NCBI GenBank assembly: GCA_016186625.1
Contig: JACPLG010000003.1
Span: 98,576 to 162,575, forward strand
Length of the DNA stretch: 64,000 bases
Reading direction: 5' to 3'
From: Candidatus Levyibacteriota bacterium
Lineage (GTDB): Bacteria > Patescibacteriota > Microgenomatia > Levybacterales > UBA12049
Below the pieces are notes generated by a model. That model was not told the origin of the DNA, ran no database searches, and saw only the letters and a program-made list of their open reading frames with translations. Made by a program: the position numbers and the translations under genes. Shown here one piece after another: positions 1 through 17,508 of this stretch. Positions within the stretch are counted from its first letter, which is position 1. The number at the start of each line of letters is the position of its first letter.

Positions 1-187
1 TCTATGAAGCATACAGAAATAAAAAGGATGCGAAAAGAAGAGAGTTATATTTAAAATCCAATCGCGGGAGAACTACTCTTATGACCATGCTAAAGGAGTA
101 CTTTAGCATGAGTCAGGTATAGAATTGTATCTGACAATGTTGAAAGAATATTTTGTCAAAAACAATAAGTAAACTGAGCAAAGCTAC

Positions 188-385: not shown

Positions 386-440
386 TAGTGATAATATGCC
401 CCATAGTTCTTTTCTGCCCGATTCCTGCCCCTAAATTATC

Positions 441-674: not shown

Positions 675-792
675 AGTATTGACCCAGGATGGCTTGACAA
701 ACCTGATTTTATGGAGGATAATCCACGCAAACACTTTGGGAAAGCCCACCTTCGCATGAAGCTATGGTGGGTAAAGGAGGTGAAGAAAGAAA

Positions 793-1335
793 ATGATTAA
801 TAAAAAAATTTGGGCAGCAATAGGTGGCGCAGCACTTTTGGCAGCTGTTGCATTACCGGCACTGGCAGCAACCGACCAGGGCGTTACTGCGACGGTCACT
901 CCTCAGAATATTTCTATTATCGTTTCGCCTACGTCTGTTGACTATGGCACAGTCGCAGTCCCTTCAGTGGACCTCGTTCCTACGGGTGATACGATTATCG
1001 GTGCCACCAATGATGGAAACATTACAGAAACCTTTAACATTAAAGGTGCCAATGCTACTGGTACAACTAAAACATGGACTATCGTCGATGGAGCGCCAGG
1101 TGGAGCGGAGACATTTAATTACAACCACAAATACGCTGATTGTGGTGTTGGTGACTCAACTTGTACAACCCAAGATGCAGTTAACAACATGACCACCGGT
1201 TACGAAACCCTTGAAGCTGGTGTAGCAGCAGGATCTAGTGATTACTTTAGGTTGAGACTTAGCACACCGACTGAGACTGGCGGTGATACTAGCGAACACT
1301 CAACCACGGTTACTGTTCAGGCAGTGGCAACCTAA
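793..1335 (+). CDS. secreted protein with signal peptide, unknown function, upstream of subtilase
   Basis: Strong SD AAGGAGGTG 8 nt upstream of ATG; N-terminal signal peptide AALLAAVALPALAA; Thr/Gly-rich mature region. Confidence 0.6.
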   Translation: MINKKIWAAIGGAALLAAVALPALAATDQGVTATVTPQNISIIVSPTSVDYGTVAVPSVDLVPTGDTIIGATNDGNITETFNIKGANATGTTKTWTIVDGAPGGAETFNYNHKYADCGVGDSTCTTQDAVNNMTTGYETLEAGVAAGSSDYFRLRLSTPTETGGDTSEHSTTVTVQAVAT

Positions 1336-1446
1336 AGCGGTTGCGGGACGTACCATTCGGTACATCCTTAAAAGTTGCGGATTTGGGGAGGAAAAATCTA
1401 GGACGTCAGGCGTTCTTGTGATATAATTGCCGCGCTCAGGAGATTT

Positions 1447-3624: not shown

Positions 3625-3693
3625 ACCCATCGTGGTTTGGGGCTGCGCCGTAACCGTTAATAGCGCGGATTTTGCGGTTGCAGGGAGGTGATA

Positions 3694-4335
3694 ATGATGA
3701 GCAAAAAACTTTTGTCTATATTACTAATAATTTCAGCGGTTTTTGCGTTTACTTTTGCGAATTCCGCGGTTGCCAAGATTGGTGTGGGAGTCGGTTTGGG
3801 AAAAGTTCAAATTGATGAGAAGCTTTCTCCCGGCGGAATTTATAAATTGCCTACTCTTCCTGTTCTAAACACAGGCGATGAGGATGGAGATTACGAAGTT
3901 GAAGTTACTTATCTTTCCGACCAGCCGGAATTTCAGCCACCGGGTGAGTGGTTTACCTTCACTCCCCAAAGTTTTTCCCTTGATGCCGGCGGTTCACAAT
4001 TGGTTGAGGTATCATTAACTCTTCCGGTTGATGCCAGACCCGGCAATTATTTTGCTTTTTTGGAAGCCCATCCCAAGGCCAAGGGTGAAGGGGTGACTAT
4101 TGGCATTGCCGCTGCCACCAAGCTTAATTTTACAGTTAAGCCTGCCGGTGTATTGGGCGCTGCTATTGAGAGGCTGAGAAGCCTTCTTGAAAACAACGCT
4201 CCTTTCTCTTATATTATTATTGCCGTTGTTGGTGGTGTTTTAGTTCTAAGTTTATTGGTAGTAGTCGGCAGGAAATATTTAGCGGTGCAAATTCGCTTCA
4301 AAGGTAAGTCCGCTAAAAATAAGGAGGGAGGCTAA
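3694..4335 (+). CDS. cell-surface protein: signal peptide plus C-terminal TM anchor with basic tail
   Basis: SD GGGAGGTG; ORF-track start is GTG 3688, ATG 3694 more likely; N-terminal signal; C-terminal IIIAVVGGVLVLSLLVVVGRKY...KGKSAKNKEGG. Confidence 0.6.
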   Translation: MMSKKLLSILLIISAVFAFTFANSAVAKIGVGVGLGKVQIDEKLSPGGIYKLPTLPVLNTGDEDGDYEVEVTYLSDQPEFQPPGEWFTFTPQSFSLDAGGSQLVEVSLTLPVDARPGNYFAFLEAHPKAKGEGVTIGIAAATKLNFTVKPAGVLGAAIERLRSLLENNAPFSYIIIAVVGGVLVLSLLVVVGRKYLAVQIRFKGKSAKNKEGG

Positions 4336-4337
4336 AG

Positions 4338-4799
4338 TTGAGAACATTGGGAATCATCGCTAGTGGTTTTTTACTGCTAGCGACCGCTTTGGGGCCGGTT
4401 CATGCCCAGGGCGGTACTGTTTCCGCTACTGTCAGGCCTAACCCGCTGACTGTTTCTGTTTCCGCTCCCGACCCTGTCACTGTTGGCCAGTGGTTTTATA
4501 TCAAAGCCGAAGTAACCAATTTAGGTAATCAGGCCATCACCAACACCGTGGTCACCATCAATACACCAGCTGGGATAATCGTCCGGGGACAGAAAAAAAT
4601 TAAGATTGGCGATCTTACCGGCAGCCAGACTCAAACAGTTACTTGGCTCGCCAAAGCCAATAGCTCCGGTACTTTTATCATTCAGGTTGAAGCAACGGGT
4701 GATTTGGCCGGTGAACAAATCTCTTCATCCGATTCTCTCAGCATCTCCGCCGTCAGTTCTCTTGCCGCTTTCCTGTTCCGGCTAATCTTTAATGTCTAA
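4338..4799 (+). CDS. secreted DUF11/CARDB-like repeat-domain protein
   Basis: TTG start with AAGGAGGGAGG SD; signal peptide; motif EVTNLGNQAITNTVVTINTPAG typical of DUF11/CARDB adhesin-like domains. Confidence 0.55.
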   Translation: MRTLGIIASGFLLLATALGPVHAQGGTVSATVRPNPLTVSVSAPDPVTVGQWFYIKAEVTNLGNQAITNTVVTINTPAGIIVRGQKKIKIGDLTGSQTQTVTWLAKANSSGTFIIQVEATGDLAGEQISSSDSLSISAVSSLAAFLFRLIFNV

Positions 4800-5160
4800 A
4801 GTGTTCATGAAGAAGGTTTTCATCACCGTCCTTGTAGCTATCGTGATTGCTTTTGGCGCCAGTCTCATCTTATTAAACCGTCAACCGCCAAAAGACGAAT
4901 CCTACGCCCATGCTCCCGATTATTCTTGGGTTACCGGACAACTTCAATATCAGGACATTGAGGGTGGTTTCTGGATAATACGTTTTGGCAGCAGGGATGC
5001 TCCCTACAATGGCCAATTCGTTTTAGGAAAAGACTCGCGTTTGCAAAATTTTAAAAATGGCGATTTGGTAAAAATTACAGGCAAAATATCGCAGGACCAA
5101 ATTAGCATTTATCAAGCCGGTACCATTTACACCCTTCAGTCTATCGAATTTCTCAAATAA
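4792..5160 (+). CDS. membrane-anchored hypothetical protein
   Basis: 122-aa ORF with N-terminal TM helix; 8-nt overlap with upstream gene (operon). Confidence 0.45.
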   Translation: MSKVFMKKVFITVLVAIVIAFGASLILLNRQPPKDESYAHAPDYSWVTGQLQYQDIEGGFWIIRFGSRDAPYNGQFVLGKDSRLQNFKNGDLVKITGKISQDQISIYQAGTIYTLQSIEFLK

Positions 5161-5214
5161 ATCCCCTTATCCCACACCAGTATGTGCAGACACATAGGGA
5201 TTCGGTGGCGATAA

Positions 5215-5511
5215 TTAACATTTTACCTTCCCACATTCCATGTGGGAATACATTTTTCGAAGCTCTTTTTTTGCTTTTTCTAAAATTTTCTTTCTTTCGG
5301 GCGCTAAATTTTTACCGGCGCGGTTAATATAAAAATTAAGCATACTCATGGCGGATTGAAAAGGAGAGGCTTTCCGTCTGGTACTGACATCTGCTGAACG
5401 CTTAAGGCTCAAAGCAATTTTTTTGGGATCATCCCAGGTAAAAACCCCCTCCTCTAAATCCAGTGCGATACTATGTTTGGTAACCTCTCCTGACCATTTC
5501 TTTTTACTCAT
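5215..5511 (-). CDS. DUF3175 family protein
   Basis: Pattern KKWSxEVTxHSxALDLE...SAMSMLNFYINRAGKNL matches DUF3175; C-terminal 8 residues are encoded by the hairpin repeat at 5228-5248. Confidence 0.6.
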   Translation of the reverse strand: MSKKKWSGEVTKHSIALDLEEGVFTWDDPKKIALSLKRSADVSTRRKASPFQSAMSMLNFYINRAGKNLAPERKKILEKAKKELRKMYSHMECGKVKC

Positions 5512-5543: not shown

Positions 5544-6194
5544 CTATTCTGTTATTATGCGGATTCTTGATGAGACAAGATTTGCCAAGACATTAAGCTG
5601 CGATTTCATTTGCACTTGATATAGTCTTGGGCCTCTATCATAAATTAGTGCCGGGGAGATAAACTGATATGTGTCCTTAGTTCCGTCTCTGGTTACTTCC
5701 GAATTCCAAACGGCGTAATTATCGGTTTTATTAAAAAGTCGGACAGATACCTTTCCATTTGCAGTAGGAACATTAATGAATGCTTCAAAATGTACCTCTT
5801 TAATATTTTCGTAGGCGGCTATATCTGCTGTAGTAAGCGCTCCTCCTACATCTGCCCAATCAAGTGATTGATTAGTTCCGGAGCCAATATTAATATAGTA
5901 TTCCTTGGAGTCTGTTTTTTTGTTTACCTCTGTGGTAACTGGTTTGGGTGTTGGAGTGGGAGATGGTGTGGCAGTTGGTTCTTGAGAGATTGAGGGAGTT
6001 GCATTAATTATTGTAGCCGGCTCGTGGCTTTTTTTTGATTGAAGAATGAGATAGAAGATTCCGGCAAGTGAGATTAAAATAATTATCGAGATTATGGCAA
6101 ATGCTACTGCTACCCTTTTCTCGTCCCTGTGAAGTTCCTCTTCTTCTTCGTGAAGTTCCTCAAGAATTGAAGAATTGCCTATTTCTTTTGTCAC
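5544..6194 (-). CDS. membrane-anchored hypothetical protein with Pro/Thr-rich linker
   Basis: 216-aa ORF; N-terminal acidic region, one TM, PTPTPKP linker, extracytoplasmic domain. Confidence 0.55.
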   Translation of the reverse strand: MTKEIGNSSILEELHEEEEELHRDEKRVAVAFAIISIIILISLAGIFYLILQSKKSHEPATIINATPSISQEPTATPSPTPTPKPVTTEVNKKTDSKEYYINIGSGTNQSLDWADVGGALTTADIAAYENIKEVHFEAFINVPTANGKVSVRLFNKTDNYAVWNSEVTRDGTKDTYQFISPALIYDRGPRLYQVQMKSQLNVLANLVSSRIRIITE

Positions 6195-6249: not shown

Positions 6250-6357
6250 GTGCTATAATTGCCCCAATGAATGATAGAATCTTGCTTCCCACATTCCAAG
6301 TGGGAAGGTACATTCAGACACCAAAAACCCTAAGCACAACTCTGCTACAATTGCCCC
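6250..6357 (+). repeat. ~110-bp interspersed repeat, copy 1: promoter-like motif at both ends, central hairpin CTTCCCACATTCCAAGTGGGAAG, embedded short ORF
   Basis: Near-identical to 12758-12865 (a few mismatches); hairpin at 6285-6307. Confidence 0.8.
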
Positions 6358-6435
6358 AATTTTCTTGTTGACAATATTTTTCTTTGGGAGTATGTTGCAA
6401 ATACAACCTATACAAGAAAGGGGGTGAAGAAATAA

Positions 6436-7197
6436 ATGGGTATTTCACAAACAAAGTGGACTTTGGGAATTGTTGCCATAGTAATAATTGCCGTTGCAGC
6501 AATTTTTGTCTACCAATCCAAAGTAAGTAACATTCCCTCAACTCAACCAACTTCGCAAGAGTCAACGACAATCGGTAAAATAACTGATATTACGTTTGTA
6601 AATCATATACAGGCAAAGCTACCTGAGCAGGACGTTTTCATTCAAAGTAAGGATGACTCTTCAAAGGTAATACGTGTTGAAGGCGAAACGGCAAGCGATC
6701 CATCAGTATTAGCTCAAACTGTCTATGCGACAGCTGTTGAAACACCGCATGACCCTTTTAAAGTGGGCGACAATCCCTTGGGGCCTTTTCAAAAAGGTGT
6801 TAATCTAGGATTCAACTTAGAAGACTGGCTGGCAGCAACGGGTAAAGGTACGTACAGTGTTGATGGCGATGATGCAGAGCTTTCTCTCTCATTTACAAAC
6901 CTTGTGCCAAATAGCACTTATACTGTTTGGTGTTCACGAATCACTTTCCCACCTACTCCAAATGTGGTGGACAGGCCATGTGGTGCAGCGGATGGCTCAG
7001 AGAATGTATTTACAACAGATGAGAATGGGAATGGTTTATTTTCAGTAAAAATGGAACCATTAGAACCAAGCACCAAAGAAACAGTATCGGCTATTGCACT
7101 TGCTTATCATAGTGATGGAAAAACATACGCGGAAAGTCCTGGCAATTTTGGACTTAACAGCCACGTACAGATTTTCTATCTTTTGCCGGCACAATAA
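6436..7197 (+). CDS. membrane-anchored hypothetical protein
   Basis: SD AAAGGGGGTGAAG; N-terminal TM; 253 aa. Confidence 0.6.
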   Translation: MGISQTKWTLGIVAIVIIAVAAIFVYQSKVSNIPSTQPTSQESTTIGKITDITFVNHIQAKLPEQDVFIQSKDDSSKVIRVEGETASDPSVLAQTVYATAVETPHDPFKVGDNPLGPFQKGVNLGFNLEDWLAATGKGTYSVDGDDAELSLSFTNLVPNSTYTVWCSRITFPPTPNVVDRPCGAADGSENVFTTDENGNGLFSVKMEPLEPSTKETVSAIALAYHSDGKTYAESPGNFGLNSHVQIFYLLPAQ

Positions 7198-7383
7198 TAG
7201 TTAGATAGATATCTGTCTCATACCTGTATGTTTATCTAGCCATATATTTTTTTGTGATAAAGTTGGTTACTTCCCTTGCCCTTCAGGGTGAAACCTTCAG
7301 GATGAATCCCTCGAAGTTCAGCATTGCATGAACGAAGTGGGGTGCTATAATTGCCCCAAAATTTTGCTATCCAAATTACATAG

Positions 7384-7758
7384 CTAATTTTTATTTAGTT
7401 TTTGTCTTTTAATACGAATGCCTGAGAGGGAAATTATAATCAAATTCCCTGAATAATCATTTTTCCTAAGTTTACTTAAGGCAGATTTTACAGCTTTATT
7501 AATGTAACCAGTAGAAAGTTCGTTTGGGAATCGTAGAATTACAATTCCACTATGAGACCCAAGCGGAAAGTTTAATATGTTTGAAAATCCTAAGTCAGCG
7601 GAAAATAAAACAGCTTTATTACCTTTGGCAAACTTAAATATTTCTATATCTGCCTTGCCTCTTAGGCCATGGTCTCTAACATCAAATACATTAAATCCTA
7701 GATTCGAGAGTACATTTGCTAAAGATTTGTGAAGATCCTCATCTATTAAGGCATTCAT
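7384..7758 (-). CDS. DUF5615-family (PIN-like) putative toxin
   Basis: Sequence pattern of DUF5615; 4-nt overlap with upstream DUF433 gene. Confidence 0.65.
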   Translation of the reverse strand: MNALIDEDLHKSLANVLSNLGFNVFDVRDHGLRGKADIEIFKFAKGNKAVLFSADLGFSNILNFPLGSHSGIVILRFPNELSTGYINKAVKSALSKLRKNDYSGNLIIISLSGIRIKRQKLNKN

Positions 7759-8012
7759 CTGAGGGCGACTTCTTCTTCCTCAACAAGTTTTGTGGCGTAC
7801 TTTAAAGCCGCTAAGACTTGCTGGCGAGTAAGTTCGTACTCTTTCATAACCTCATCTACGCTCATCCCTCCGGCAATTTTACCCACAACCACGTCAACCG
7901 GTACGCGCGTTTTTTCAATAATTGGTTTTCCAAAACGTACTTTTGGATCAACAATAATATGTGGAAAAATTTGCTTTTTCATACGACCACTAGTATAGCA
8001 TAACTTAATCAT
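7755..8012 (-). CDS. DUF433-family putative antitoxin
   Basis: IVDPKVRFGKPIIEKTRVPVDVVVGKIAGGMSVDEVMKEYELTRQQVLAALKYA is the canonical DUF433 pattern; start ATG 8012 is more plausible than ORF-track GTG 8036. Confidence 0.65.
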   Translation of the reverse strand: MIKLCYTSGRMKKQIFPHIIVDPKVRFGKPIIEKTRVPVDVVVGKIAGGMSVDEVMKEYELTRQQVLAALKYATKLVEEEEVALR

Positions 8013-8157
8013 GGTTTTTTCTTTGCATTTTTGCACTAGTTAAAATAACGACAGGTTTTCCTGATCGAGTGATTAAAACCTTTTTGTTTCCATAAAATAC
8101 CTCGTTTATTATTTCAGAAAAATTTTGTCGAGCCTGTTTTGCTGTTACCGTTTTCAC
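8005..8157 (-). CDS. Phd/YefM-like antitoxin N-terminal domain (50 aa), not in ORF track
   Basis: Manual translation VKTVTAKQARQNFSEIINEVFYGNKKVLITRSGKPVVILTSAKMQRKNHD parallels E. coli YefM (ARQNLS...ILITRQNG...VLMS); GTG start; its stop overlaps the ATG of the DUF433 gene (cATGATTAA). Confidence 0.5.
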   Translation of the reverse strand: MKTVTAKQARQNFSEIINEVFYGNKKVLITRSGKPVVILTSAKMQRKNHD

Positions 8158-8222
8158 ATCCTGATTTTATTTAACGCGATTACAAAAAAAGTTATAGAGT
8201 TATCTCTGCTATAATTGCCCCA

Positions 8223-8897
8223 ATGGATTTGGACAATAAAAGTGTGGTAATAGTTGGCGCCTCAAGCGGTTTGGGCAAAGCTTTGGCTAAACTTTTGTCC
8301 AAAGAGGGCACAAACTTATTTCTTATCTCAAGAAAAGTCGCCTTATCAAATATTCCCTCCGCTATAAAAATTGCTGCTGATGTAAGAAAAGCCGAAAATA
8401 TAAAAATAGCATTTGAGGAAATTGACAAACACACAGGTAGCATAGATCTTCTAATCAATTGTGCAGGCATAGGTCTTTTAAAAGATTTAAGGGAATCGAC
8501 AATAGAGGAAATAAATGATGTTATTGATACGGATTTAAAAGGGGCAATTTACGTAGCTCAGGAAGTTTATAAAAGAATGGCGGAGAAAGGATCGGGACAT
8601 ATCATAAATATTGTCTCTACTTCGGGACTCCGAGCCAGACCCATGGAGACAGTTTATTGCGCTGCAAAATGGGGACTTCGGGGATTTACAGAAAGTCTCC
8701 AAGTCGCTGGAGAAGAAACAGGAGTTAAGGTAACCGGAGTCTATCCGGGCGGAATGAAATCTGAAAATTTCTGGAAAATAACTCCAGGAAAAGATATAAG
8801 CGGCTTTATGGACCAAAATGAAGTCGCCCAAAAGATTATAGATTTAATCAAGGGGGATTACCAAAAAGAAGTAACAATAGAGCGTCCCAAAAAATAA
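8223..8897 (+). CDS. short-chain dehydrogenase/reductase (SDR) family oxidoreductase
   Basis: VVIVGASSGLGKA (TGxxxGxG), YCAAKWG (YxxxK); ATG 9 nt after TATAAT of the repeat motif. Confidence 0.85.
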   Translation: MDLDNKSVVIVGASSGLGKALAKLLSKEGTNLFLISRKVALSNIPSAIKIAADVRKAENIKIAFEEIDKHTGSIDLLINCAGIGLLKDLRESTIEEINDVIDTDLKGAIYVAQEVYKRMAEKGSGHIINIVSTSGLRARPMETVYCAAKWGLRGFTESLQVAGEETGVKVTGVYPGGMKSENFWKITPGKDISGFMDQNEVAQKIIDLIKGDYQKEVTIERPKK

Positions 8898-8906
8898 CTT
8901 CTCTGC

Positions 8907-8912
8907 TATAAT
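8907..8912 (+). promoter_or_regulatory. copy of TGCTATAATTGCCCC motif with no ORF downstream; candidate sRNA promoter
   Basis: Followed by ~110 nt of non-coding sequence ending in a perfect 10-bp palindrome TCAATGATTT/AAATCATTGA plus AGTTTT (9003-9028). Confidence 0.4.
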
Positions 8913-9050
8913 TGCCCCATTTATCCTTAGCCTCAAAAGGTCTCACCTTGCAAGGCTAAAACTCCATCGTCTAGTCTACGGTCTTATCTTCCATGGATTA
9001 ATTCAATGATTTAAATCATTGAAGTTTTCAGCTTCTGCTATAATTGCCCC

Positions 9051-9773
9051 ATGGACTCAGGAGATTTTCAGAGACGTTTTGAACAAGCACACAAACTCCT
9101 CACCCAGGAGACAACCAACCGAGAGAAATTTGAGGGAGTACGAACTTTGATAAAAGGTTATAATCCCAAAGTTGACAGCGCTTTAGAAAAAGTCTCCGGT
9201 GCTTTGTCTGATCTTGAAAAGCTTAAGGAAGGAGAAATAATTGAACTTAGCGCTCAACATTTACCCGAAAATTCGGAAGAAGAGAAGGAAAGAAAAAAGA
9301 AACTTTTAGCTTTTATTCGTTATTGGAAAGATTTAACTTCAGAAGTTGAAAGAGTTAGAAATGAGCTTTCTTCGCAAAACAACCAAAGCCCGTCCCAACA
9401 AGTCTCTGCTTTTGGAAAAATTGTCAAACTTGCAAAAGGACCATTTGGGGCAGTTACAATTGCTGCAGTTGCTATCGTTGCCGTACTGGGATTTATTAAT
9501 TTTCAAAAACCACCGGAAACGGTTCAGAATCAAGCGATCGATGAAAGTCCAAAACAAAAGATCCAAGTTATTGTAGTAGATGACAAAAAAATTCCTTTAA
9601 GCGAAGTTAGATCTGCAACTGGGAGTGAATGTGAAGGAAAAGCCCATTACCATGCAAGGGAGAATGGTGTTGCTGTGGCAATTGATGGAACGCAAGTCGT
9701 TGATCCAAATCCAACAAGCTGCGGCTATGGAAAAGTGGAAGAAGTTAAGATTGAAGAAATAGAACAACCCTAA
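9051..9773 (+). CDS. hypothetical bitopic membrane protein (cytoplasmic coiled-coil N-domain, one TM, extracytoplasmic C-domain)
   Basis: ATG directly follows the TGCTATAATTGCCCC motif; TM GAVTIAAVAIVAVLGFI. Confidence 0.5.
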   Translation: MDSGDFQRRFEQAHKLLTQETTNREKFEGVRTLIKGYNPKVDSALEKVSGALSDLEKLKEGEIIELSAQHLPENSEEEKERKKKLLAFIRYWKDLTSEVERVRNELSSQNNQSPSQQVSAFGKIVKLAKGPFGAVTIAAVAIVAVLGFINFQKPPETVQNQAIDESPKQKIQVIVVDDKKIPLSEVRSATGSECEGKAHYHARENGVAVAIDGTQVVDPNPTSCGYGKVEEVKIEEIEQP

Positions 9774-9793
9774 ACTTCTGCTATAATTTATGT

Positions 9794-10369
9794 ATGGCAG
9801 TAACATCTACAATGCTTCCGCTTGGCACAAAGGCACCGGATTTTAGTTTACCTGATGTTGTTTCAAATAAAACTGTAAACCTTGAAATCTTTAACGATAA
9901 AAAAGCACTTCTTGTTATGTTCATTTGTCGCCATTGTCCATATGTAAAACATGTCCAAAATGAAATAGCAAAAATCGGAAAAGATTATGAGGATAAAGAT
10001 TTGGGGATTGTCGCAATTAGTGCAAATGATGTTTCGGTTTATCCTGAAGACGGGCCGCAAAGTTTGAAAGAAATGGCAGATGAGTTAGGGTTTACTTTTC
10101 CCTATTTATATGATGAAGCACAAGAGGTTGCAAAAGCATACACTGCAGCTTGTACTCCGGATTTGTTTTTGTTCGATCATGATAGAAAATTAGTTTATAG
10201 AGGACAACTCGATGGGAGTCGGCCAGGCAATAACGAACCTGTAACTGGAAAAGATATAAGAGCGGCAATTGATGCGGTGCTTAATGATAGTGAAGTTTCA
10301 AAAGGCCAAAAACCGAGCATGGGCTGCAGCATTAAATGGAAGATCGGTAATGAACCTTCGTATTTCTAA
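9794..10369 (+). CDS. thioredoxin-fold (redoxin/TlpA-like) protein with CxxC
   Basis: KAPDFSLPD...LVMFICRHCPYV redoxin pattern; ATG 6 nt after TATAAT. Confidence 0.7.
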   Translation: MAVTSTMLPLGTKAPDFSLPDVVSNKTVNLEIFNDKKALLVMFICRHCPYVKHVQNEIAKIGKDYEDKDLGIVAISANDVSVYPEDGPQSLKEMADELGFTFPYLYDEAQEVAKAYTAACTPDLFLFDHDRKLVYRGQLDGSRPGNNEPVTGKDIRAAIDAVLNDSEVSKGQKPSMGCSIKWKIGNEPSYF

Positions 10370-10378
10370 AGAACTAAT

Positions 10379-11140
10379 TTATTTGTATTTTTTAATCAGT
10401 CCTTCAAAAGCGCGGAGCACTTCAAGAGGAGTTACGAAAACTATAGTGTTACTTTTGTCGGATGATAATTCCGAAAGAGTCTGCAGAGTACGGACGTGGA
10501 GACCTCCTGTAGTTTTGGCAAGCCTTCCAGCTGCAATAGCAATATTTTCCGCTGCTGCTTTTTCTCCTTCAGCCCGAATAACAATTGCCCGGCGCTCCCT
10601 TTCTGCTTCAGCCTGGCGTGCTATAACTCTTTTCATCTCTTCTGGCAAAATAATATCTTTTAACTCCACTGACTCTACCTTAATACCCCATGGATCTGTA
10701 GCCCTATCTATAATTGTCTGAATTTTTTTGGCAACTTGATCGCGCTTTGAGAGTAAATCGTCAAGAGAAGTTTCTCCAATTACATTTCTCATAGTTGTTT
10801 GAGCCAGCTGGGACACTGCATAAAAGAAATCCTCTACCTGCAAAACCGCCTTTTTTGCCTGATCTACGCGGTAATAAATGACAGCATTAACGCGGGCTGA
10901 AACATTATCCCGAGTGATTGCTTCCTGATCCGGAACGTCTACTGCCTTTACCCTGATGTCAATTCTTTGCCAGCCTTCTATAATAGGCCAAACAATTCTC
11001 CATCCGGGAACCATCTCGTCTCGAAATTTTCCAAAGCGGAAGCGGACTCCGCGCTCATATTGATTAACCTGTTTTATAGAGGGAATAAGAATTACCAAGA
11101 AAAAGATAATAATCCCAAGTGAAAAGACTGCAAAATCCAT
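10379..11140 (-). CDS. SPFH/band-7 (stomatin/prohibitin-like) membrane protein
   Basis: N-terminal TM plus ERGVRFRFGKF...; typical SPFH domain and coiled-coil tail. Confidence 0.85.
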   Translation of the reverse strand: MDFAVFSLGIIIFFLVILIPSIKQVNQYERGVRFRFGKFRDEMVPGWRIVWPIIEGWQRIDIRVKAVDVPDQEAITRDNVSARVNAVIYYRVDQAKKAVLQVEDFFYAVSQLAQTTMRNVIGETSLDDLLSKRDQVAKKIQTIIDRATDPWGIKVESVELKDIILPEEMKRVIARQAEAERERRAIVIRAEGEKAAAENIAIAAGRLAKTTGGLHVRTLQTLSELSSDKSNTIVFVTPLEVLRAFEGLIKKYK

Positions 11141-11229
11141 TTGGGAAGTATATTACATCAAAACATTTACATTATCAAATTAAGAAAACAGATTTTGAAA
11201 TTTCTATTCTCTGCTATAATTGCCCCGGT

Positions 11230-11667
11230 TTATTGCTTTATATACCTTTCTATTTCTTTTAGAAAATCATCCGGTGTTAGAATTTCTATTTGACGAAAGG
11301 TTTTCAATGTTAATAAATCACTATCTCCTGTTACAATAAAGCCAGATTTACCTTCAATTGCTGCTTCAAGTACTCTATTGTCGTCCTCATCTTCAAGGAT
11401 ATAAATAATTTCATCTGGATGGATAATTTTAAAATGTTTTTTTATGATTTTTTCTAACTGCTTGACTCTGATCAGCTCAAAATTAAATTTTTTGGTTAAA
11501 GTTTCTGTTAATTCAGCAAGGAGCACTGGAGAACTTATCCCAATAATTTGTTTTTCTAAAATGAGGCTATAAACTTGTTCTGGTTTTCCGCCAAATACTA
11601 GAGCGGAGATAATAACATTTGTGTCGAGGACTGCTTTAGGAGGCTTTTTTACCATGCCTAAATTCAT
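11230..11667 (-). CDS. PIN-domain toxin (VapC-like)
   Basis: VLDTNVIISAL N-terminal PIN motif; acidic residues D...E...D; overlaps upstream RHH gene. Confidence 0.75.
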   Translation of the reverse strand: MNLGMVKKPPKAVLDTNVIISALVFGGKPEQVYSLILEKQIIGISSPVLLAELTETLTKKFNFELIRVKQLEKIIKKHFKIIHPDEIIYILEDEDDNRVLEAAIEGKSGFIVTGDSDLLTLKTFRQIEILTPDDFLKEIERYIKQ

Positions 11668-11887
11668 AAACGATCTTATTTACTTCCTTTTCGCTTTTAA
11701 TCCCCATTTTTTTACCAACTTTTTTGCCATAGTCTAAAAGATCATTCCATTCCTGCCTGTCTTGCAAATAAACTCTTAAAGCCTCACGAATTAGCTCGCT
11801 TCTGTTGCGATATTCTTTTTTAGCAAGAATGTCTACTCTTTTGACTAAGTCTTTTGGAAGAGCAATGTTTAATGTTTGTGTTGCCAT
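11636..11887 (-). CDS. ribbon-helix-helix (CopG-like) antitoxin
   Basis: MATQTLNIALPKDLVKRVDILAKKEYRNRSELIREALRVYL RHH pattern; the matching minus-strand promoter is listed separately at 11896-11924. Confidence 0.65.
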   Translation of the reverse strand: MATQTLNIALPKDLVKRVDILAKKEYRNRSELIREALRVYLQDRQEWNDLLDYGKKVGKKMGIKSEKEVNKIVYEFRHGKKAS

Positions 11888-11895
11888 ATACAAAT

Positions 11896-11924
11896 ATTGT
11901 ATGTAATTGATATATCTTTGTCAA
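11896..11924 (-). promoter_or_regulatory. consensus sigma70-type promoter for the RHH-PIN operon (leaderless)
   Basis: Minus-strand TTGACA (11919-11924), 17-nt spacer, TACAAT (11896-11901), 8 nt to ATG at 11887. Confidence 0.6.
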
Positions 11925-12007
11925 CACTCAAAAACCATCATCTGCTATAATTGCCCCAAATTGCAAACAGCCCATTTTGCACTATTTAATCTCCCAGAAT
12001 AATTGTA

Positions 12008-12035
12008 TTGACAAAGTATGTACAGTTAGTATAAT
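12008..12035 (+). promoter_or_regulatory. consensus sigma70-type promoter for brnTA (leaderless)
   Basis: TTGACA (12008-12013), 16-nt spacer, TATAAT (12030-12035), 6 nt to GTG start 12042. Confidence 0.6.
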
Positions 12036-12041
12036 ATGTAA

Positions 12042-12323
12042 GTGAAATATAAGTTTGATTATTCGCTAGAGAAAGATTTAATTCTTAAAGAATCAAGAGG
12101 TGTTAGCTTTAGAGAAGTAATTCAAGCATACAGAACTGGGAAAAAGCTTGCTGACTATGAAAACAAAAGCAAAAAACACCCTAATCAAAGACTTTTAATT
12201 GTTAATATCAAAGGCTATGCATACGTTACGCCATATGTTATAGATGAAAAAAGGAAAAGAGTATTTTTAAAAACTGTATATCCAAGCAGCAAATTAACTA
12301 AGGAGTACATAAAAAAATTATGA
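12042..12323 (+). CDS. brnT: BrnT-like toxin (DUF497 ribonuclease)
   Basis: KFDYSLEKDLILKESRGVSFREVIQAY...RLLIVNIKGYAYVTPYV pattern of BrnT/DUF497; 4-nt overlap with downstream antitoxin. Confidence 0.65.
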   Translation: MKYKFDYSLEKDLILKESRGVSFREVIQAYRTGKKLADYENKSKKHPNQRLLIVNIKGYAYVTPYVIDEKRKRVFLKTVYPSSKLTKEYIKKL

Positions 12324-12628
12324 AAAAGAAAAAATTTGATCCATTTAAAAATCTTAAACTAGATAAATACGAACAGGAAATAGAAGATGCTCTTGAAAGA
12401 GAGGAATTTGTTCCTGTAGAAGACTCTTCGGAAATTAATAAAATATTGACAGAGGCTGCAAAAAATTATACCGAGCTTGAAAACAGCAAGAGTATAACTT
12501 TAAGAATTAAAAATATAGATCTAATAAAATTAAAAGCAAAAGCCGCAAGAAATAAAATTCCCTATCAGACTCTTATAAATTTACTTATAAAAGAATACAC
12601 AGAAGGCAAAACAAAAATATCATTGTAA
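12320..12628 (+). CDS. brnA: BrnA-like antitoxin
   Basis: Typical position and size after brnT; ITLRIKNIDLIKLKAKAARNKIPYQTLINLLIKEY matches the BrnA C-terminal RHH-like region. Confidence 0.6.
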   Translation: MKKKKFDPFKNLKLDKYEQEIEDALEREEFVPVEDSSEINKILTEAAKNYTELENSKSITLRIKNIDLIKLKAKAARNKIPYQTLINLLIKEYTEGKTKISL

Positions 12629-12757
12629 ATTCCTCAATTCTCATAGTTTGAAAAGGTGAGGGGTGCTTGCCCTGTTTACCCTGAACACTTGGAGGGAGCA
12701 ATGCCGAAGGGTTTACGCAGAGCGAAAGTGGGGTGCTTGCCCTGAGCAATGCCGAAG

Positions 12758-12865
12758 GACTATAATTGCCCCAATGAATAATAGAATCTTGCTTCCCACA
12801 TTCCAAGTGGGAAGGTACATTCAGACACCAAAAACCCTAAGCACAACTCTGCTATAATTGCCCCA
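12758..12865 (+). repeat. ~110-bp interspersed repeat, copy 2
   Basis: Near-identical to 6250-6357; hairpin 12792-12814; preceded by internal direct repeats GGGGTGCTTGCCCTG...GCAATGCCGAAGG x2 (12660-12758). Confidence 0.8.
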
Positions 12866-12867
12866 GA

Positions 12868-13083
12868 TCATTTTAGTCTTAAGAATTCTTCTTCGCTAGA
12901 CTCCGCTTGTTTGATTATGCCTCTTACTAGTCCTTTTTTGAGTTCTTTGGTGTGCATTGGAACAGGAATAATCTTCTTTGATTTGGGATTATACATAATA
13001 AGATGACTGCCGGTTTGTCTTTTCTTAATGTATCCGAGTTTTTGAAGAATTTTGACTATCTCTCTTGCTTTAAAACTAGCCAT
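12868..13083 (-). CDS. hicA: HicA-family mRNA interferase toxin
   Basis: REIVKILQKLGYIKKRQTGSHLIMYNPKSKKIIPVPMH is the canonical HicA (YcfA-like) pattern. Confidence 0.75.
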   Translation of the reverse strand: MASFKAREIVKILQKLGYIKKRQTGSHLIMYNPKSKKIIPVPMHTKELKKGLVRGIIKQAESSEEEFLRLK

Positions 13084-13347
13084 TTATAGAGATACTGCTG
13101 GATTTTGTACGGAAATTTGCGTGATGACAACATTTGACCCTTCTTGTGGAATTTCTTGCTTCTCTTCTTTAAGAACCTCTAAATACCCTTTCATAGCGTC
13201 TTTTATCATAGATACCGCTTCCTCAAAAGTCTCACCTTGACTTACACAGCCGGGAAGAGCTGGAACACTAACTACATAACCGCCTTCTTCAGCCGGTTCA
13301 AAAATAACAGTATATTTTAAGATTTTTTTAGAAAGAGATTTAGCCAT
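13084..13347 (-). CDS. hicB: HicB-family antitoxin
   Basis: YTVIFEPAEEGGYVVSVPALPGCVSQGETFEEAVSMIKDAMKGYLE HicB N-domain pattern; TATAAT 6 nt upstream of ATG (leaderless). Confidence 0.75.
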   Translation of the reverse strand: MAKSLSKKILKYTVIFEPAEEGGYVVSVPALPGCVSQGETFEEAVSMIKDAMKGYLEVLKEEKQEIPQEGSNVVITQISVQNPAVSL

Positions 13348-13586
13348 GCTCTAATTATATCACACCCAAACCTTATCTTCCTTGCCCCTCGAAGCTTTTT
13401 GCGAAGTGGGGTGCTATAATTGCCCCCCAAAAAAAGCCCTAATGGATAATATACTTCATTACTTTAAAGTATTGAAGTATATAATAATTTTTCCCTTTTT
13501 CCTCGTAGCATTTCTGTTTACACTGAGTAAAACCGAAGTGCTATAATTGCCCCGGGGGTTATTAATAAAAAAAATGACCCCTGAAT

Positions 13587-13898
13587 ATGTTTAATTTCTT
13601 ATCTGATTTAATCTATTTAATATTAGTTGGCTCAATATCGCTATTAACAATAATAGTTACAAAAAATAGCTTGTCAAAAAAGATATTAGCAAAAGATCCC
13701 AAGGCATTACTTATCAATAATTCCTTAATTATCTTTGGAATTATATTAATAATTATTGTATTTATTAAATATTCGTGGATTGCTGGAATTACAACAATAA
13801 CTATTGCTTTAATCATTTATATTATTATTGCTAGAATATTAGCACGTGCTCTCGAGAAAAATTTATTTGAGTCTCATAAAAAAGAAGGGCAAGAGTAA
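13587..13898 (+). CDS. small polytopic membrane protein (3 TM), unknown function, in AT-rich islet
   Basis: 103 aa, highly hydrophobic; local GC about 25%. Confidence 0.4.
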   Translation: MFNFLSDLIYLILVGSISLLTIIVTKNSLSKKILAKDPKALLINNSLIIFGIILIIIVFIKYSWIAGITTITIALIIYIIIARILARALEKNLFESHKKEGQE

Positions 13899-13978
13899 AT
13901 TCTTCAAAACATCTATAAAAACTTGACTCCGAGGCTAATGAATGGGAAAATGAGCGAGTATTATAGCTGTGGAATAAA

Positions 13979-14503
13979 ATGTTTGTTCCAAATATTAAAA
14001 CCAAAAATAAATTATTCGTACTCTCTTTTTTATCCTTGATGGCTATAATTATTTTTTTAAGTCTAAATAAAATGACAGTAAATTATAGGCTTTCGGCATT
14101 TCTAAGTTTAGCTGCAACTCTAACCTTTTTCTATACATATTTTAAAGAGGCAATATTTGATTGGCATGCTGATCCAAATAGTCAAACCATTAAAAAAATT
14201 AATGGTAAATTAGAAAAAACCTGGTTAGATAAACGAAAAGAATTGAAAGATAAAGAATCATTTATAAAAGATGCTCCTGCTGCTTGGGTGATTGAAGGAT
14301 ATATTCACGTGTTCCTAGGTTTAGCATTGGGCTGGTTTTTCTTTTGGATACTTTTAAATAGATTAAAATTTTTTGATGGAAAATTGGACCTCTCTTCATT
14401 AGGACTACCAGATCTAATTCTATTAATTGCTGGTTGGATCGGAATAAATGGTAGATTACCAACTATTGCTCACGCTGTCCAAGAATGGTTTAAGAGAAGC
14501 TAA
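13979..14503 (+). CDS. polytopic membrane protein (about 4 TM), unknown function
   Basis: 174 aa; AT-rich islet. Confidence 0.45.
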   Translation: MFVPNIKTKNKLFVLSFLSLMAIIIFLSLNKMTVNYRLSAFLSLAATLTFFYTYFKEAIFDWHADPNSQTIKKINGKLEKTWLDKRKELKDKESFIKDAPAAWVIEGYIHVFLGLALGWFFFWILLNRLKFFDGKLDLSSLGLPDLILLIAGWIGINGRLPTIAHAVQEWFKRS

Positions 14504-14571
14504 TAAATTTTAGCATTCTGATATACTTTCTTCTTGTAATCCCCGTAAAAGGATGTTATACTAGTATCAAC

Positions 14572-15351
14572 ATGCACGACATCAATCGCTTGCCACTATC
14601 TCAAATAAAACTATTGCTGCGTTTTTGGAATAATCCCAATAAAATAGGATTTGCTGAGGGAAGAGAAGAGGGAGGTAGTGTAAAGGAATTAAACAAAAAG
14701 GGTCTGATTGAACCAGCAGGGAAAATAGGGCGTAGAGTTAGATGGAGATTAGTCACTGGTAAACTCAACAGTCGAGATATTGATGTAATGATTGGCTTAA
14801 TCAAACACTCTCCAATTCCTGCCGAAGAGGAAAGCTTGATAGTTGAGCTTATAGGGGAAGCAAAAGATCTAGCGATACTAATATCAAGAAATATAGGTAC
14901 AAAAGGTTATCATTATTTTTTACAATCTTTTTTCTTGGTTCTTCGACAAATGGGCTATTTTTTTACTGAACACTCATCAACTATATTTCACTATAGCTCA
15001 GCTCTCTCTCAAGCCGAGGTAGAGATCTTGGAAAAAATCAGAGATATTCGTGATGCAATAGGACACCGAGAATCTCGAAAGAATTTTCTAACAGCTAATA
15101 TTAAACTAGTTGGAGGAATGTTTTTCAAAAATAACGATGTAGAAATTCAATATGGTAGAAATAAAATTTATTTAGTGGGTGAGATTCTTGCGATACATAA
15201 AAAAATGAGAAAGCTTTTTTCTAGCGCAGACGAACTCGCTTTTTTAAGTAGAAGCTATGGATGGCAGTATGACGAAAAAGAACTCCGAGAAGCCGAAAAA
15301 CAGTTGATAGAAAAACTCAAAAATCCAAAAGCTCTTATAAATTTAGAATAG
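14572..15351 (+). CDS. hypothetical cytoplasmic protein, possible N-terminal winged helix and R-x4-H (HEPN-like) motif
   Basis: 259 aa; motif IRDAIGHRESR; no recognisable enzyme family; assignment tentative. Confidence 0.45.
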   Translation: MHDINRLPLSQIKLLLRFWNNPNKIGFAEGREEGGSVKELNKKGLIEPAGKIGRRVRWRLVTGKLNSRDIDVMIGLIKHSPIPAEEESLIVELIGEAKDLAILISRNIGTKGYHYFLQSFFLVLRQMGYFFTEHSSTIFHYSSALSQAEVEILEKIRDIRDAIGHRESRKNFLTANIKLVGGMFFKNNDVEIQYGRNKIYLVGEILAIHKKMRKLFSSADELAFLSRSYGWQYDEKELREAEKQLIEKLKNPKALINLE

Positions 15352-15636
15352 TATTTTTTTAAAAACTAATTCTTACAAAGCTCTTGCATTATATTCCTTG
15401 ACATGTATACAGGTCGCTTTGCTCCAATTTCTAATTTCTAGTTACTAATTTCTAATCAATTCCATACAGAATTTCTATTGATAATTTTTTAAGAATGTTT
15501 AGAATATAAATATGAAGAAAAGTGCCATGACAGAGGGCTGGAATTCATCTCTTAACAAACTCGCCCGATCTTTATACTGATTTGTGCTCAATTTTAGTCT
15601 ATGCTAAGCTAAATACGGTTATTGTTTGCCTTGAGT

Positions 15637-17508
15637 ATGAATATAAAAAATAAGCTTTTGGGTTTTATTCAGCTTCCTATTCTTATTATCCTTATTGCTA
15701 CCGGGGCACTGGGTACTTTTACAGTAGTCAAAGGCCCGGAGCTTGTTGAGGAGTATAAGCAGGGACAGCTTCAAAAAGAGTTGGCACAAAAAAGCCTGCC
15801 TCAGGGCGCTGCAACTGCGGATACAATTCTTGTAGGATTTAGAACCGGAGTTCCCACCACCCAGCGGGATTTTATTCATCAAAAGCTTAGCATCGCTCTC
15901 AAAAAAAGAGTAAATCAAATAAATGCGGATGTTATTAACGTTCCTGCTGGGACGCCGGTTTCGGAACTTATTGATAAATACAGACAAAATCCTCAGGTGG
16001 AATATGCAGAGCCCAATTTCCTTGCCGCCGCATTTTTAACGCCAAATGACCCATATTACGGGAGCCAGTGGAATCTGCAAAAAGTTTTAGTGGAAGAAGC
16101 ATATGATCTTGCCAAAGGAGGAGGGGCGCTTATTGCTGTTGTTGATACGGGTGTTGACGGGAGCCATCCTGATCTATCGGGACTTGTTATTGAGGGATAT
16201 AACACAATTGATGAAAATAACAATTCTTTTGATGATCACGGTCATGGGACGCATGTTGCAGGAATTGCATCAGCCCAAACCGACAACGGGAGCGGTATTG
16301 CAAGCATGTCCTTTGCATCAAGTGTCCTGCCGGTAAAAGTACTCAATAAAGACGGAGTAGGCACATACGCCGATGTTTCGGAGGGGATAATTTATGCTTC
16401 GGACAACGGCGCCCGGATTGTCAATTTAAGCCTGGGCGGAAGCTCAGACTCAGAAACACTTAAAAGAGCTGTAAGATACGCACAGTCAAAGGGAAGTATT
16501 TTAGTTGCGGCGGCAGGCAACAGCGGTAATGATGCGCCTGTCTACCCGGCCGCCTATGAGGGTGTTTTGGCGGTTTCCGCATCAGATAAAAATGATAATT
16601 TGGCGCCGTTTTCAAGCTATGGCAGTAATATTTTTGCCGCATCTCCGGGCGTTTCTATTACCTCATCTGTTCCAGGAAGCGACTACAAGCAAGCAAGCGG
16701 AACGTCCATGGCAGCGCCGCATGTCTCAGGGCTTTTAGCTTTATCAATCTCTCACAAACCGGAATTATCCAACTCGGAACTTATTGATCAGATAAAACAA
16801 AACGCTGAAAAGGTGGGTCAATACAGCTACAATGAAGACGGATGGAACCCTTATTTTGGTTACGGCAGAATCAGTGCCGGAAAAACTCTTACTGCAATTT
16901 CATCGGATGAAACAACAGAAGAAGAGCCGGAGCCAACATTAGATACATCCTCTTCCTCCCGTCTTTCCAAACAGGCAAAAGTGCCCCAGGCATATTCATT
17001 TTCCTTTGACTTGCAGGGTGCTGTTGAGGCAGTGAACACCTTTGATAGCAAACTTACCCTGAAAGTGGGAGGAGGAACACCAAATGTTATGGAACGGCTT
17101 TCAGGCAATCTTATTGATGTATATATCAATTCACAAACCAGAATAAAATATCAAGGCAGGACAATTTCATTAACCCAGGTTTCAAGCGGTTCACAGCTTA
17201 ATATAAAAGGCAACATTATCCAAAACAGGCTTGTGGCGCTTGAAATAATTGTTCAATATCTTGCAACAGGACAGCCTATTGAGGCATTGCCAAATCAAAA
17301 TCAGAATCCTGGACAGGAAAATATCCCGCAATCCCAACAACAGGGTGAGCAGTCTCCTCAAGATTCAGGTCAATCATCGCAAGGCGGTGGAGCACCCCAA
17401 GTGCAATTGCCTCCTCAGGCAGGACAAGGTAAAGGAGTAAAGGGTATTTCTGTAATTTCATGGCTTCAGTTTATTCAGGAAAAAGCATTCGGATTATTTA
17501 ATAAGTGA
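15637..17508 (+). CDS. secreted subtilisin-like serine protease (peptidase S8) with Gln/Pro/Gly-rich C-terminus
   Basis: IAVVDTGVDGSHPDL, HGHGTHVAGIAS, SGTSMAAPHVSGLLAL; ORF-track TTG 15622, ATG 15637 preferred. Confidence 0.9.
   Translation: MNIKNKLLGFIQLPILIILIATGALGTFTVVKGPELVEEYKQGQLQKELAQKSLPQGAATADTILVGFRTGVPTTQRDFIHQKLSIALKKRVNQINADVINVPAGTPVSELIDKYRQNPQVEYAEPNFLAAAFLTPNDPYYGSQWNLQKVLVEEAYDLAKGGGALIAVVDTGVDGSHPDLSGLVIEGYNTIDENNNSFDDHGHGTHVAGIASAQTDNGSGIASMSFASSVLPVKVLNKDGVGTYADVSEGIIYASDNGARIVNLSLGGSSDSETLKRAVRYAQSKGSILVAAAGNSGNDAPVYPAAYEGVLAVSASDKNDNLAPFSSYGSNIFAASPGVSITSSVPGSDYKQASGTSMAAPHVSGLLALSISHKPELSNSELIDQIKQNAEKVGQYSYNEDGWNPYFGYGRISAGKTLTAISSDETTEEEPEPTLDTSSSSRLSKQAKVPQAYSFSFDLQGAVEAVNTFDSKLTLKVGGGTPNVMERLSGNLIDVYINSQTRIKYQGRTISLTQVSSGSQLNIKGNIIQNRLVALEIIVQYLATGQPIEALPNQNQNPGQENIPQSQQQGEQSPQDSGQSSQGGGAPQVQLPPQAGQGKGVKGISVISWLQFIQEKAFGLFNK

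Follow-up and report, generated by a model that had tools for sequence, protein, structure and literature searches.

A toxin–antitoxin cluster in a one-directional cassette array of a Levyibacteriota bacterium: Is the junction repeat both crossover site and promoter?

Introduction

Chromosomal integrons and integrase-less attC clusters (CALIN) are polar arrays of short cassettes, about 0.3–1 kb long with one or two mostly co-oriented genes, among them self-promoted toxin–antitoxin (TA) cassettes in either orientation and some noncoding cassettes; their content, a mixture of accessory and detoxification functions, varies between strains at a fixed chromosomal site (PMC4889954). The dif modules of Acinetobacter are small TA or accessory modules bounded by short conserved sites, the pdif sites used by XerC and XerD, and they are shuffled between replicons with no dedicated recombinase gene adjoining them (PMC13141974, PMC6449649). 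Promoters can be shared out too: near-identical ones dispersed upstream of unrelated genes have been described as reused, or “mobile” (PMC3575422). In this paper, we describe a locus that resembles all of these—a cluster of TA operons interleaved with a 15-base repeat, R (TGCTATAATTGCCCC), in a 64,000-nucleotide stretch of the genome of a Candidatus Levyibacteriota bacterium (contig JACPLG010000003.1; the whole stretch is hereafter called the window).

How far does the resemblance go? Like an integron, the locus is a polar array of strain-variable cassettes, and the other integron features just named recur in it. But there is no intI beside the array (in the window, in 20 kb of a comparison locus, L133, or recurrently in the flanks of other arrays), and the cassette ends have neither attC-type imperfect palindromes nor the R''/R' GTTRRRY core. 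The junction is instead a 15-nt direct repeat that is itself promoter-like, so that each cassette would have its own promoter rather than share one Pc, and the hosts are Patescibacteria. The likeness to dif modules, whose traits of small bounded modules, shuffling, and absence of an adjoining recombinase gene are also found here, stops at the site. A pdif site is 28 bp, with two arms around a 6-bp center, alternates in orientation, and lies on plasmids, whereas R is 15 nt, mostly lacks the left arm, has all its copies in direct orientation, lies on the chromosome, and would also be a promoter. We know of no 28-bp dif site to which R is similar. Like the reused promoters, R stands near-identical before many nonhomologous genes and across species (129 unique contexts, 97 cassette types, 89 Pfam families); those promoters, however, are dispersed, whereas R forms polar arrays and marks boundaries even where there is no gene to serve. 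In other words, the structure works like integrons and dif modules but lacks what defines either of them.

The genomes of the Patescibacteria, or candidate phyla radiation (CPR), are tiny, and how these bacteria come by accessory genes and express them is poorly understood. A junction that served both for exchange and as a ready-made leaderless promoter would solve the two problems compactly and would be a second, independent route to an integron-like cassette platform. A preliminary description of the region, made from the letters of the window, saw a defense or plasticity island at positions 7384–13347. We think it probable that the TA cluster is part of something larger: a variable, chromosomal, one-directional cassette array with a junction that serves at once for crossover and as a promoter. 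In the literature that we searched, we found neither the R motif nor such arrays described in CPR.

An Array with One Direction

Eleven exact and two near copies of R lie between 6251 and 13553, where 0.16 would be expected from shuffled sequence and where 13 copies were reached in none of 100 shuffles. All 13 are on the + strand. Apart from a two-mismatch R-like site at 1419, which is unrelated to the array, the remaining 50 kb of the window is free of R. The interval singled out earlier holds six exact copies and one variant; the array proper is 6251–13553, and its last cassette reaches ~15387. The repeat, first described as saturating the island, extends further than that and is more regular, running in one direction and marking boundaries whatever the orientation of the genes.

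R divides 6251–15387 into 12 units, of which four are noncoding (92–132 nt), one is compound, and the others are either forward units with an ATG at R or reverse TA units. Read from the left, and with copies of R exact unless we say otherwise, the first junction (6251–6265) comes just after a conserved left-flank gene (5544–6194, − strand) and opens a noncoding 92-nt cassette (6266–6342). The second junction (6343–6357) is a one-mismatch variant, TGCTACAATTGCCCC, and is followed by a gene for a 253-aa protein (6436–7197, +). The third (7343–7357) has no forward gene downstream and faces the 3' end of the reverse DUF5615 gene in a three-gene TA cassette, Phd/DUF433/DUF5615 (7384–8157, −). The fourth (8207–8221) would serve a short-chain dehydrogenase (SDR) gene (8223–8897, +), whose stop codon lies 6 nt before the fifth (8904–8918); a noncoding cassette with three hairpins comes next (8919–9035), and then the sixth (9036–9050), which would serve the gene for a 240-aa protein. 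That gene begins the compound cassette (9051–11140; the unit spans 9036–11211), which continues with a redoxin gene on the + strand and an SPFH gene on the − strand. The seventh copy (11212–11226) is followed by a reverse RHH/PIN_3 cassette (11230–11893, −), and the eighth (11943–11957) is the left boundary of a forward TA cassette, which pairs a BrnT-like protein, a predicted RelE-fold toxin, with BrnA (12042–12628, +). The ninth (12758–12772) is the two-mismatch variant GACTATAATTGCCCC and precedes a second 92-nt cassette (12773–12849), the tenth (12850–12864) abuts a reverse HicB/HicA cassette (12868–13347, −), and the eleventh (13412–13426) opens a 127-nt unit. The last (13539–13553) leads into a cassette of three genes.

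Three of these copies have no forward gene. The exact copies at 7343, 11212, and 12850 lie 26, 3, and 3 nt, respectively, from the stop codons of the reverse DUF5615, PIN, and HicA genes—that is, they abut reverse TA operons that use other promoters. R is, therefore, a boundary and not just a candidate promoter of genes.

The compound unit seems to be what is left when junctions fade: at one of its junctions, R survives in its 5' half alone, and at another, it has gone. The redoxin gene is preceded at 9779–9793 by cttcTGCTATAATTTATGT-ATG, in which an AT-rich discriminator follows the 5' two-thirds of R; this resembles a junction in decay. In two comparison loci (L125 and L193), the SPFH gene forms a cassette by itself, with R in front of it.

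Across all arrays, the junction consensus is an A-rich stretch followed by CTTC-TGCTATAATTGCCCC-ATG, with positions 4–10 of R essentially invariant. Some cassettes end, 3', in a GC-rich element that we call class B (window ~7270–7342, 12655–12757, and 13375–13411, the last at the end of the HicB/HicA cassette; elsewhere, L133 3690–3757, L125, L176, and L193), with the consensus AACTTCCCTTGCCCC-TCGTAGCC...CGAAGTGGGG and then R. The element at 12655–12757 (+) is made of GC-rich degenerate repeats, including R-like sequences without TATAAT (GGGGTGCTTGCCC, twice). The class-B element shares a GTAG motif with repetitive extragenic palindromic (REP) elements, and at the end of the SPFH cassette in three genomes, it sits just after a TTGCCCC that lacks its TGCTATAA; it looks like a mini-insertion at R.

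The Same Architecture in Other Genomes

When genomes, one for each species, were scanned with TCTGCTATAATTGCCCC, 62 stretches were returned, and a metagenome scan returned 60 more. Loci with several copies of R occur in Levybacteria (MFOV01000012, MFPL01000002, and JACOXV01), Gottesmanbacteria, and other Patescibacteria bins, all related uncultured groundwater bacteria, with different or reshuffled cassettes. All loci were rescanned on both strands, with an array locus taken as one with at least two copies at ≤1 mismatch. By this definition, there are 47 further arrays, mostly from Levybacteria and other Patescibacteria, and in none of the 47 is the orientation of R mixed. With the window, this makes 48 arrays and 223 copies of R, in 23 groups without a common cassette. 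Reverse genes occur within the arrays, and R is never on their own strand.

The 175 segments between repeats fall into 97 cassette types: 74 forward only, 9 reverse only, 3 mixed, and 11 without an open reading frame (ORF) of at least 50 aa. Outside the window, 113 cassette proteins match 89 Pfam families, including parts of TA systems (DUF433/DUF5615, HicAB, PIN, ParE, and Phd) and small enzymes (glyoxalase, PNPOx, RidA, GNAT, and hydrolases). Anyone who wants to pursue such arrays, thus, has two handles: a 15-nt site that can be searched for in any metagenome and these 97 cassette types.

Probable Exchange of Whole Cassettes at R

The island was earlier suspected of plasticity, and a comparison of synteny with relatives, which the preliminary description had asked for, shows that it is indeed variable. 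Two loci of a related species (L082 and L195, with ~70–80% protein identity in the flanks) share the left-flank gene (a 216-aa protein, window 5544–6194) and the right flank from 15388, with YceG further on; it is the resumption of homology with L082 at 15388 that defines the right end of the array. Between these flanks, where the window has ~9 kb, the relatives have two copies of R and one 861-bp cassette, and the island, therefore, does not belong to a conserved core. Entire cassettes also distinguish near-identical strains that carry a related array. In L134, which is 99.5% identical to L133 downstream, there are two HicAB cassettes (96% and 98% identical to the one in L133), and the homology between the two starts at nucleotide 2 of a copy of R.

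One exchange involves the BrnT-like/BrnA cassette, which is 98.9% identical over 726 nt between the window (11942–12667) and L106, a match that runs from R to the first bases of the next R. Its neighbors are unrelated: the RHH-PIN cassette and a 92-nt unit in the window and LigT and a gene for a 77-aa protein in L106/L133. Another segment common to the window and L106, the HicB region, is only ~80% identical. The cassette's breakpoints fall at R despite 84 nt of other intergenic DNA on the left and ~130 nt on the right. Other cassettes tell the same story: LigT has two left and two right neighbors among near-identical strains, HicAB has four different left neighbors, and SPFH and several others behave alike, with the seam exactly at R.

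Taken over all arrays, 15 of 43 internal homology breakpoints lie ≤5 nt from R and 18 lie ≤20 nt from it, where random placement would give 3% and 6%. The variants of R point to where within it the crossover may fall. A position-1 variant (G for T) has the same upstream flank in 11 of 11 cases, and certain 3' variants are found repeatedly before one and the same downstream cassette; variation tied to the upstream flank on one side and to the downstream cassette on the other would place the crossover in the invariant core, CTATAATT. In several arrays, the first or last copies are variants (L133, L134, L082, L125, L128, and L174, although the window's own first and last are exact), which would fit internal copies kept uniform by recombination. 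Could the seams be assembly chimeras? We reject this by reasoning: the assembly k (k127/k141) is far larger than 15–25 nt, and the contigs come from many independent samples.

R as a Probable Leaderless Promoter

The architecture of R is that of an extended −10 element, TGnTATAAT, followed by a GC-rich discriminator, TGCCCC. At the SDR gene (8223), the ATG comes 7 nt past the TATAAT hexamer, and at the gene for the 240-aa protein (9051), it comes 6 nt past it—the layout of a σ70-type extended −10 promoter with the start codon 6–7 nt after the hexamer. The ATG, thus, sits at the expected transcription start, and the mRNAs would be leaderless. Nor are these two genes unusual, since an ATG stands immediately 3' of R in 47 of 129 unique contexts, and the gap from R to the start codon is 0–1 nt in ~36 of the 74 forward cassette types. 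Judged by its letters, R would be an extended −10 promoter that starts transcription at the A of the adjoining ATG.

The discriminator sets R apart. The window's other leaderless promoters have the same layout, often with (CTTC)TGCTATAAT, but their discriminators are AT-rich, so that TGCCCC is specific to the array, and functional-looking leaderless promoters elsewhere in the window carry many different discriminators. According to a recent survey, Terrabacteria discriminators are generally AT- or AG-rich (PMC12641261). Promoters of stable RNAs (tRNA and rRNA), on the other hand, combine an extended −10 with a GC-rich discriminator, as R does; the difference is that R drives, or at least abuts, protein-coding accessory genes read as leaderless mRNAs. 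Exact R-type 15–17-mers, in fact, lie 5–15 nt upstream of tRNA genes in one Saccharibacteria genome, three Chloroflexi genomes, and another Patescibacteria genome (L074, L089, L119, L131, and L093), which supports R as a real promoter of the stable-RNA type and suggests that the 15–17-mer is a widely conserved form of such promoters in these lineages. Copies upstream of tRNA genes include variants with one or two mismatches and occur in both orientations (in L074, 4368–4465, 5310–5410, and 6877–6987).

The view that the repeat is promoter-bearing and interleaved with the modules, thus, holds in part: the repeat is there and looks like a promoter, but its copies all point one way and mark cassette boundaries, the TA operons use other promoters, and the arrangement is found again across Levybacteria and other Microgenomates.

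A Possible Mechanism and Its Rivals

How might such an array work? Transcription started by R would begin at the A of the ATG, so a forward cassette would need neither a promoter nor a ribosome-binding site of its own. R would be the place where whole cassettes enter or leave the array, are duplicated, and pass between strains and species, probably by crossover within its core. Since recombination between parallel copies keeps the orientation of the site, all copies would end up co-directional, whatever the orientation of the genes. TA cassettes would bring their own autoregulated promoters, could sit in either orientation, and, by analogy with the TA cassettes of chromosomal integrons, probably stabilize the array against loss. 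Where a TA cassette is reversed, the junction promoter would be aimed into the 3' end of the toxin gene and might yield an antisense transcript that controls the toxin, again an idea borrowed from chromosomal integrons. The proposal predicts cassette circles or alternative adjacencies at R, and for TA biology, it would mean self-promoted TA operons that travel as cassettes in either orientation, with a predicted strong convergent promoter aimed at the toxin gene.

Several observations weigh against this reading. No recombinase gene was found among the ORFs scanned on the array flanks in the window and in 20 kb of L133, and no recombinase recurs beside other arrays, as judged by comparing 201 ORFs from the flanks all against all. 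R lacks dyad symmetry, which sets it apart from the core sites of most tyrosine recombinases, and in 127 junction contexts, the 150 nt upstream contain no inverted partner of it. More than 100 nt separate 21 of the 43 breakpoints from R (most of these fall within a giant, repetitive gene for a surface protein, at an assembly gap, or beyond the arrays), and the tight packing of the arrays would put tolerated breakpoints near R to some extent anyway. Finally, most comparison loci are short metagenome contigs, and an exact protein look-up of the window's SDR found only three short, 100%-identical Logan contigs; the 253-aa protein, HicA, and DUF5615 had no match in the same look-up.

What would carry out the crossover? 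We lean, by a narrow margin, to a site-specific recombinase encoded elsewhere rather than to general recombination over short homology. Exact copies of R persist at places with no gene to serve, and the BrnT-like cassette has been swapped between genomes that are otherwise divergent (as judged by one other segment) with only R-sized homology on each side; both facts favor a dedicated activity. Short-homology recombination is conceivable as well because the near-identical stretch reaches ~25–30 nt at junctions with the longer consensus; ATAAC stands upstream of R in 15 of 129 contexts. A bolder version of our proposal, to which we give distinctly less credence, is that this is a previously undescribed gene-capture system of Microgenomates (CPR), a “promoter integron” in which the site is a tRNA-type leaderless promoter, any ORF that becomes joined to it would be expressed immediately with no need of a ribosome-binding site, the recombinase is neither adjoining nor of the integron type, TA cassettes act as anchors, and antisense RNA restrains reversed toxins.

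The main rival is much simpler. Perhaps this is an ordinary accessory and TA island whose genes share one type of promoter, R being an optimal leaderless promoter (perhaps one controlled by growth rate) maintained by selection, while ordinary rearrangements do the rest; seams would then appear at R only because nearly all the intergenic space is R. There is a good deal to be said for it: R is a credible promoter that is used for tRNA genes elsewhere, many cassettes begin with ATG straight after it, the packing is tight (as between the SDR stop codon and the next R), and no recombinase has turned up. A shared promoter class does explain the forward cassettes. It does not explain why exact copies without a forward gene face reverse operons, why no array is mixed and reverse genes never have R on their own strand, why the BrnT-like cassette breaks at R when other intergenic DNA is available on both sides, or why R should stay so uniform when leaderless promoters in the window tolerate many discriminators. 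The comparisons also suggest that the copies before reverse operons are no less conserved across genomes than those that serve genes. In view of the orphan copies, the strict polarity, and the position of the breakpoints, we consider this explanation rather unlikely.

Less likely still is that these are modules of the Xer/dif type or of some other tyrosine recombinase, with R a degenerate site, the class-B arrangement GGGGTG-CTATAAT-TGCCCC the full site, and cassettes integrated serially, in the manner of Xer-exploiting elements or of the Acinetobacter modules. The class-B copies do form an imperfect inverted repeat of 6–7 bp around an AT-rich 7-nt center, the array is ~6 kb from a possible replication terminus near 19.4 kb, yceG recurs near arrays, and dif modules also carry TA genes (PMC13141974, PMC6449649). 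But most copies (class A) have no left arm, the sites are all direct where pdif sites alternate, and no xer gene was seen in the window.

We give very little weight to the idea that R acts at the level of RNA, for instance as the site at which a long + strand transcript is processed to release leaderless mRNAs. Strict co-orientation and the position of R immediately before AUG are what one would expect of such a site, but R matches TGnTATAAT perfectly and is correctly spaced from the start codon, Saccharibacteria have it upstream of tRNA genes in either orientation, it shows no conserved RNA structure and no Rfam match, and breakpoints in DNA homology at R would be left without an explanation. 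A classical integron or CALIN, suggested by co-oriented small cassettes, self-promoted TA and noncoding cassettes, strain variability, and similar functions (PMC4889954), is the least credible candidate of all, the classical form being ruled out by the lack of intI in the flanks scanned and of attC-like inverted repeats, to which the missing GTTRRRY core and a promoter-like element at every junction, unlike attC sites, can be added.

The Toxin–Antitoxin Operons

We checked the TA genes with hidden Markov model (HMM) scans at Pfam cut-offs and with NCBIfam. The cluster is real, but it contains four putative type II operons, the first with three genes, rather than the five modules first counted. 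Three are on the − strand, and the BrnT-like/BrnA operon is on the + strand. As expected of type II systems, they are adjoining small genes of known TA families (or of a supporting fold), with overlapping or abutting frames and promoters of their own. The first comprises DUF5615, a PIN-like toxin (7384–7758, −; E 1e-18), DUF433 (7755–8036, −; E 6e-20), and an extra 50-aa Phd-like gene (8005–8157, −; E 3e-11; the phd family is also matched). The second pairs PIN_3 (toxin; 11230–11667, −; E 1.5e-19, also TIGR00305 PIN toxin) with RHH_1 (antitoxin; 11636–11893, −; E 4e-10), and the fourth pairs HicA (toxin; 12868–13083, −; E 9e-21) with HicB (antitoxin; 13084–13347, −; E 1e-13). All of these family matches exceed the Pfam cut-offs, and the names first given to these three operons stand.

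The third operon is a different matter. Its antitoxin does belong to CopG_antitoxin, which is the BrnA family (12320–12628, +; E 1e-6, 29.7 bits against a cut-off of 28), but the label BrnT for its 93-aa partner (12042–12323, +) does not hold. That protein has no BrnT or other significant match in Pfam or NCBIfam; at E up to 10, PF04365 (BrnT) does not appear and the only hit is DUF4258 (E 0.012), and a BLASTP comparison with L133's true BrnT yields E 0.2. These HMM and BLASTP results lead us to reject a BrnT identity; a PDB sequence search and PHROGs were uninformative. Its AlphaFold model (pLDDT 90.6) is closest to TA toxins of the RelE/HigB/YoeB type (7vd7_A, TM 0.68). Hence, we regard the product as a predicted RelE-fold toxin with a BrnA-type antitoxin rather than a demonstrated BrnT, and it differs from ordinary type II toxins in having no Pfam model and in being RelE-like by fold alone. 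There are 16 homologues (P0001–P0016), with no Pfam domain, and the family, paired with BrnA/CopG antitoxins, is a predicted TA toxin family missed by current HMM libraries.

Does each module have its own near-consensus promoter, as was first proposed? Three of the four do. The BrnT-like operon has TTGACA-16-TATAAT (12008–12035), a 12/12 match to consensus; RHH-PIN has a leaderless TTGACA-17-TACAAT; and HicBA has the leaderless TGATATAAT, with the ATG 6 nt past the hexamer. For the Phd operon, there is just a TAAAAT, picked out by eye. Across the arrays, forward TA cassettes keep a spacer of 36–153 nt after R, which is room for a promoter of their own.

The suggestion of a defense island fares less well. 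Among 10 island proteins, there are matches to 0 PADLOC families, and similarity to phages or plasmids is likewise absent; TA modules by themselves are not proof of defense, and the term is not supported. A phage or plasmid origin is ruled out by a scan of 2.9 million viral contigs with the R 15-mer, which gave only single matches at chance level, and by comparisons that gave no phage match and, among plasmids, only a 154-nt match to a thioredoxin gene.

Other Cassettes and Surroundings

HMM scans bore out the names given to three other genes of the array, namely the SDR (adh_short, E 4e-45), the redoxin (9794–10369, +), and SPFH (10379–11140, −). The 253-aa protein has an N-terminal membrane anchor and no family; the 240-aa protein (9051–9773, +) likewise belongs to no family. 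The last cassette (13554–15387, +) contains three no-family genes, for proteins of 103, 174, and 259 aa. Read by eye, the 259-aa protein (14572–15351) seems to begin with a region that resembles a helix-turn-helix and to contain an R-x4-H motif, RDAIGH, in the style of HEPN nucleases.

The noncoding cassettes, all read on the + strand, are of several kinds. The two 92-nt cassettes are 96% identical, and each has a hairpin with an 8-bp stem, CTTCCCAC-ATTCCAA-GTGGGAAG; the hairpin occurs a third time at 5227–5248, at the end of a DUF3175 gene. Each of the two also has a possible ORF of 27–34 aa that begins at the R transcription start. The three-hairpin cassette, directly 3' of R, includes the palindrome TTCAATGATTTAAATCATTGAA and has relatives at L176 5262–5425 (−), L179 776–920, and L144 8419–8541. 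Its third hairpin is the palindrome TTCRATGATTYRAATCATYGAA, with compensatory changes. The cassette, which has no Rfam match, could be a small RNA or a protein-binding site, two readings that are inseparable because one helix is a DNA palindrome and there are only four sequences. The 127-nt cassette (13427–13538) also has a palindrome and a possible 34-aa hydrophobic ORF at 13441–13545 (MDNILHYFKVLKYIIIFPFFLVAFLFTLSKTEVL), whose stop is the TAA inside the next R; the ORF could encode a small membrane peptide or be due to chance. An Rfam search of the repeat and the short noncoding cassettes gave no match at the gathering score and none worthwhile at E ≤1, and no tRNA genes were found in the window, which together rule out a tRNA or other known RNA as the origin of either.

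The only neighbor that recurs beside arrays in different contexts is YceG/MltG, whose gene is 0.7–4 kb from the arrays in L172, L082/L195, and the L133 group. In the window, gene orientation and GC skew switch where YceG (+, ending at 19392) meets a 537-aa gene (−, ending at 19395), and this switch could be a replication terminus. R points toward it, and the array is ~6 kb away. On the other side of the array, positions 1–5200 have a G+C content of 46–54%, against ~36% elsewhere, and encode a subtilase (1447–3624) and several secreted-looking proteins; a second subtilase (15622–17508) lies past the array.

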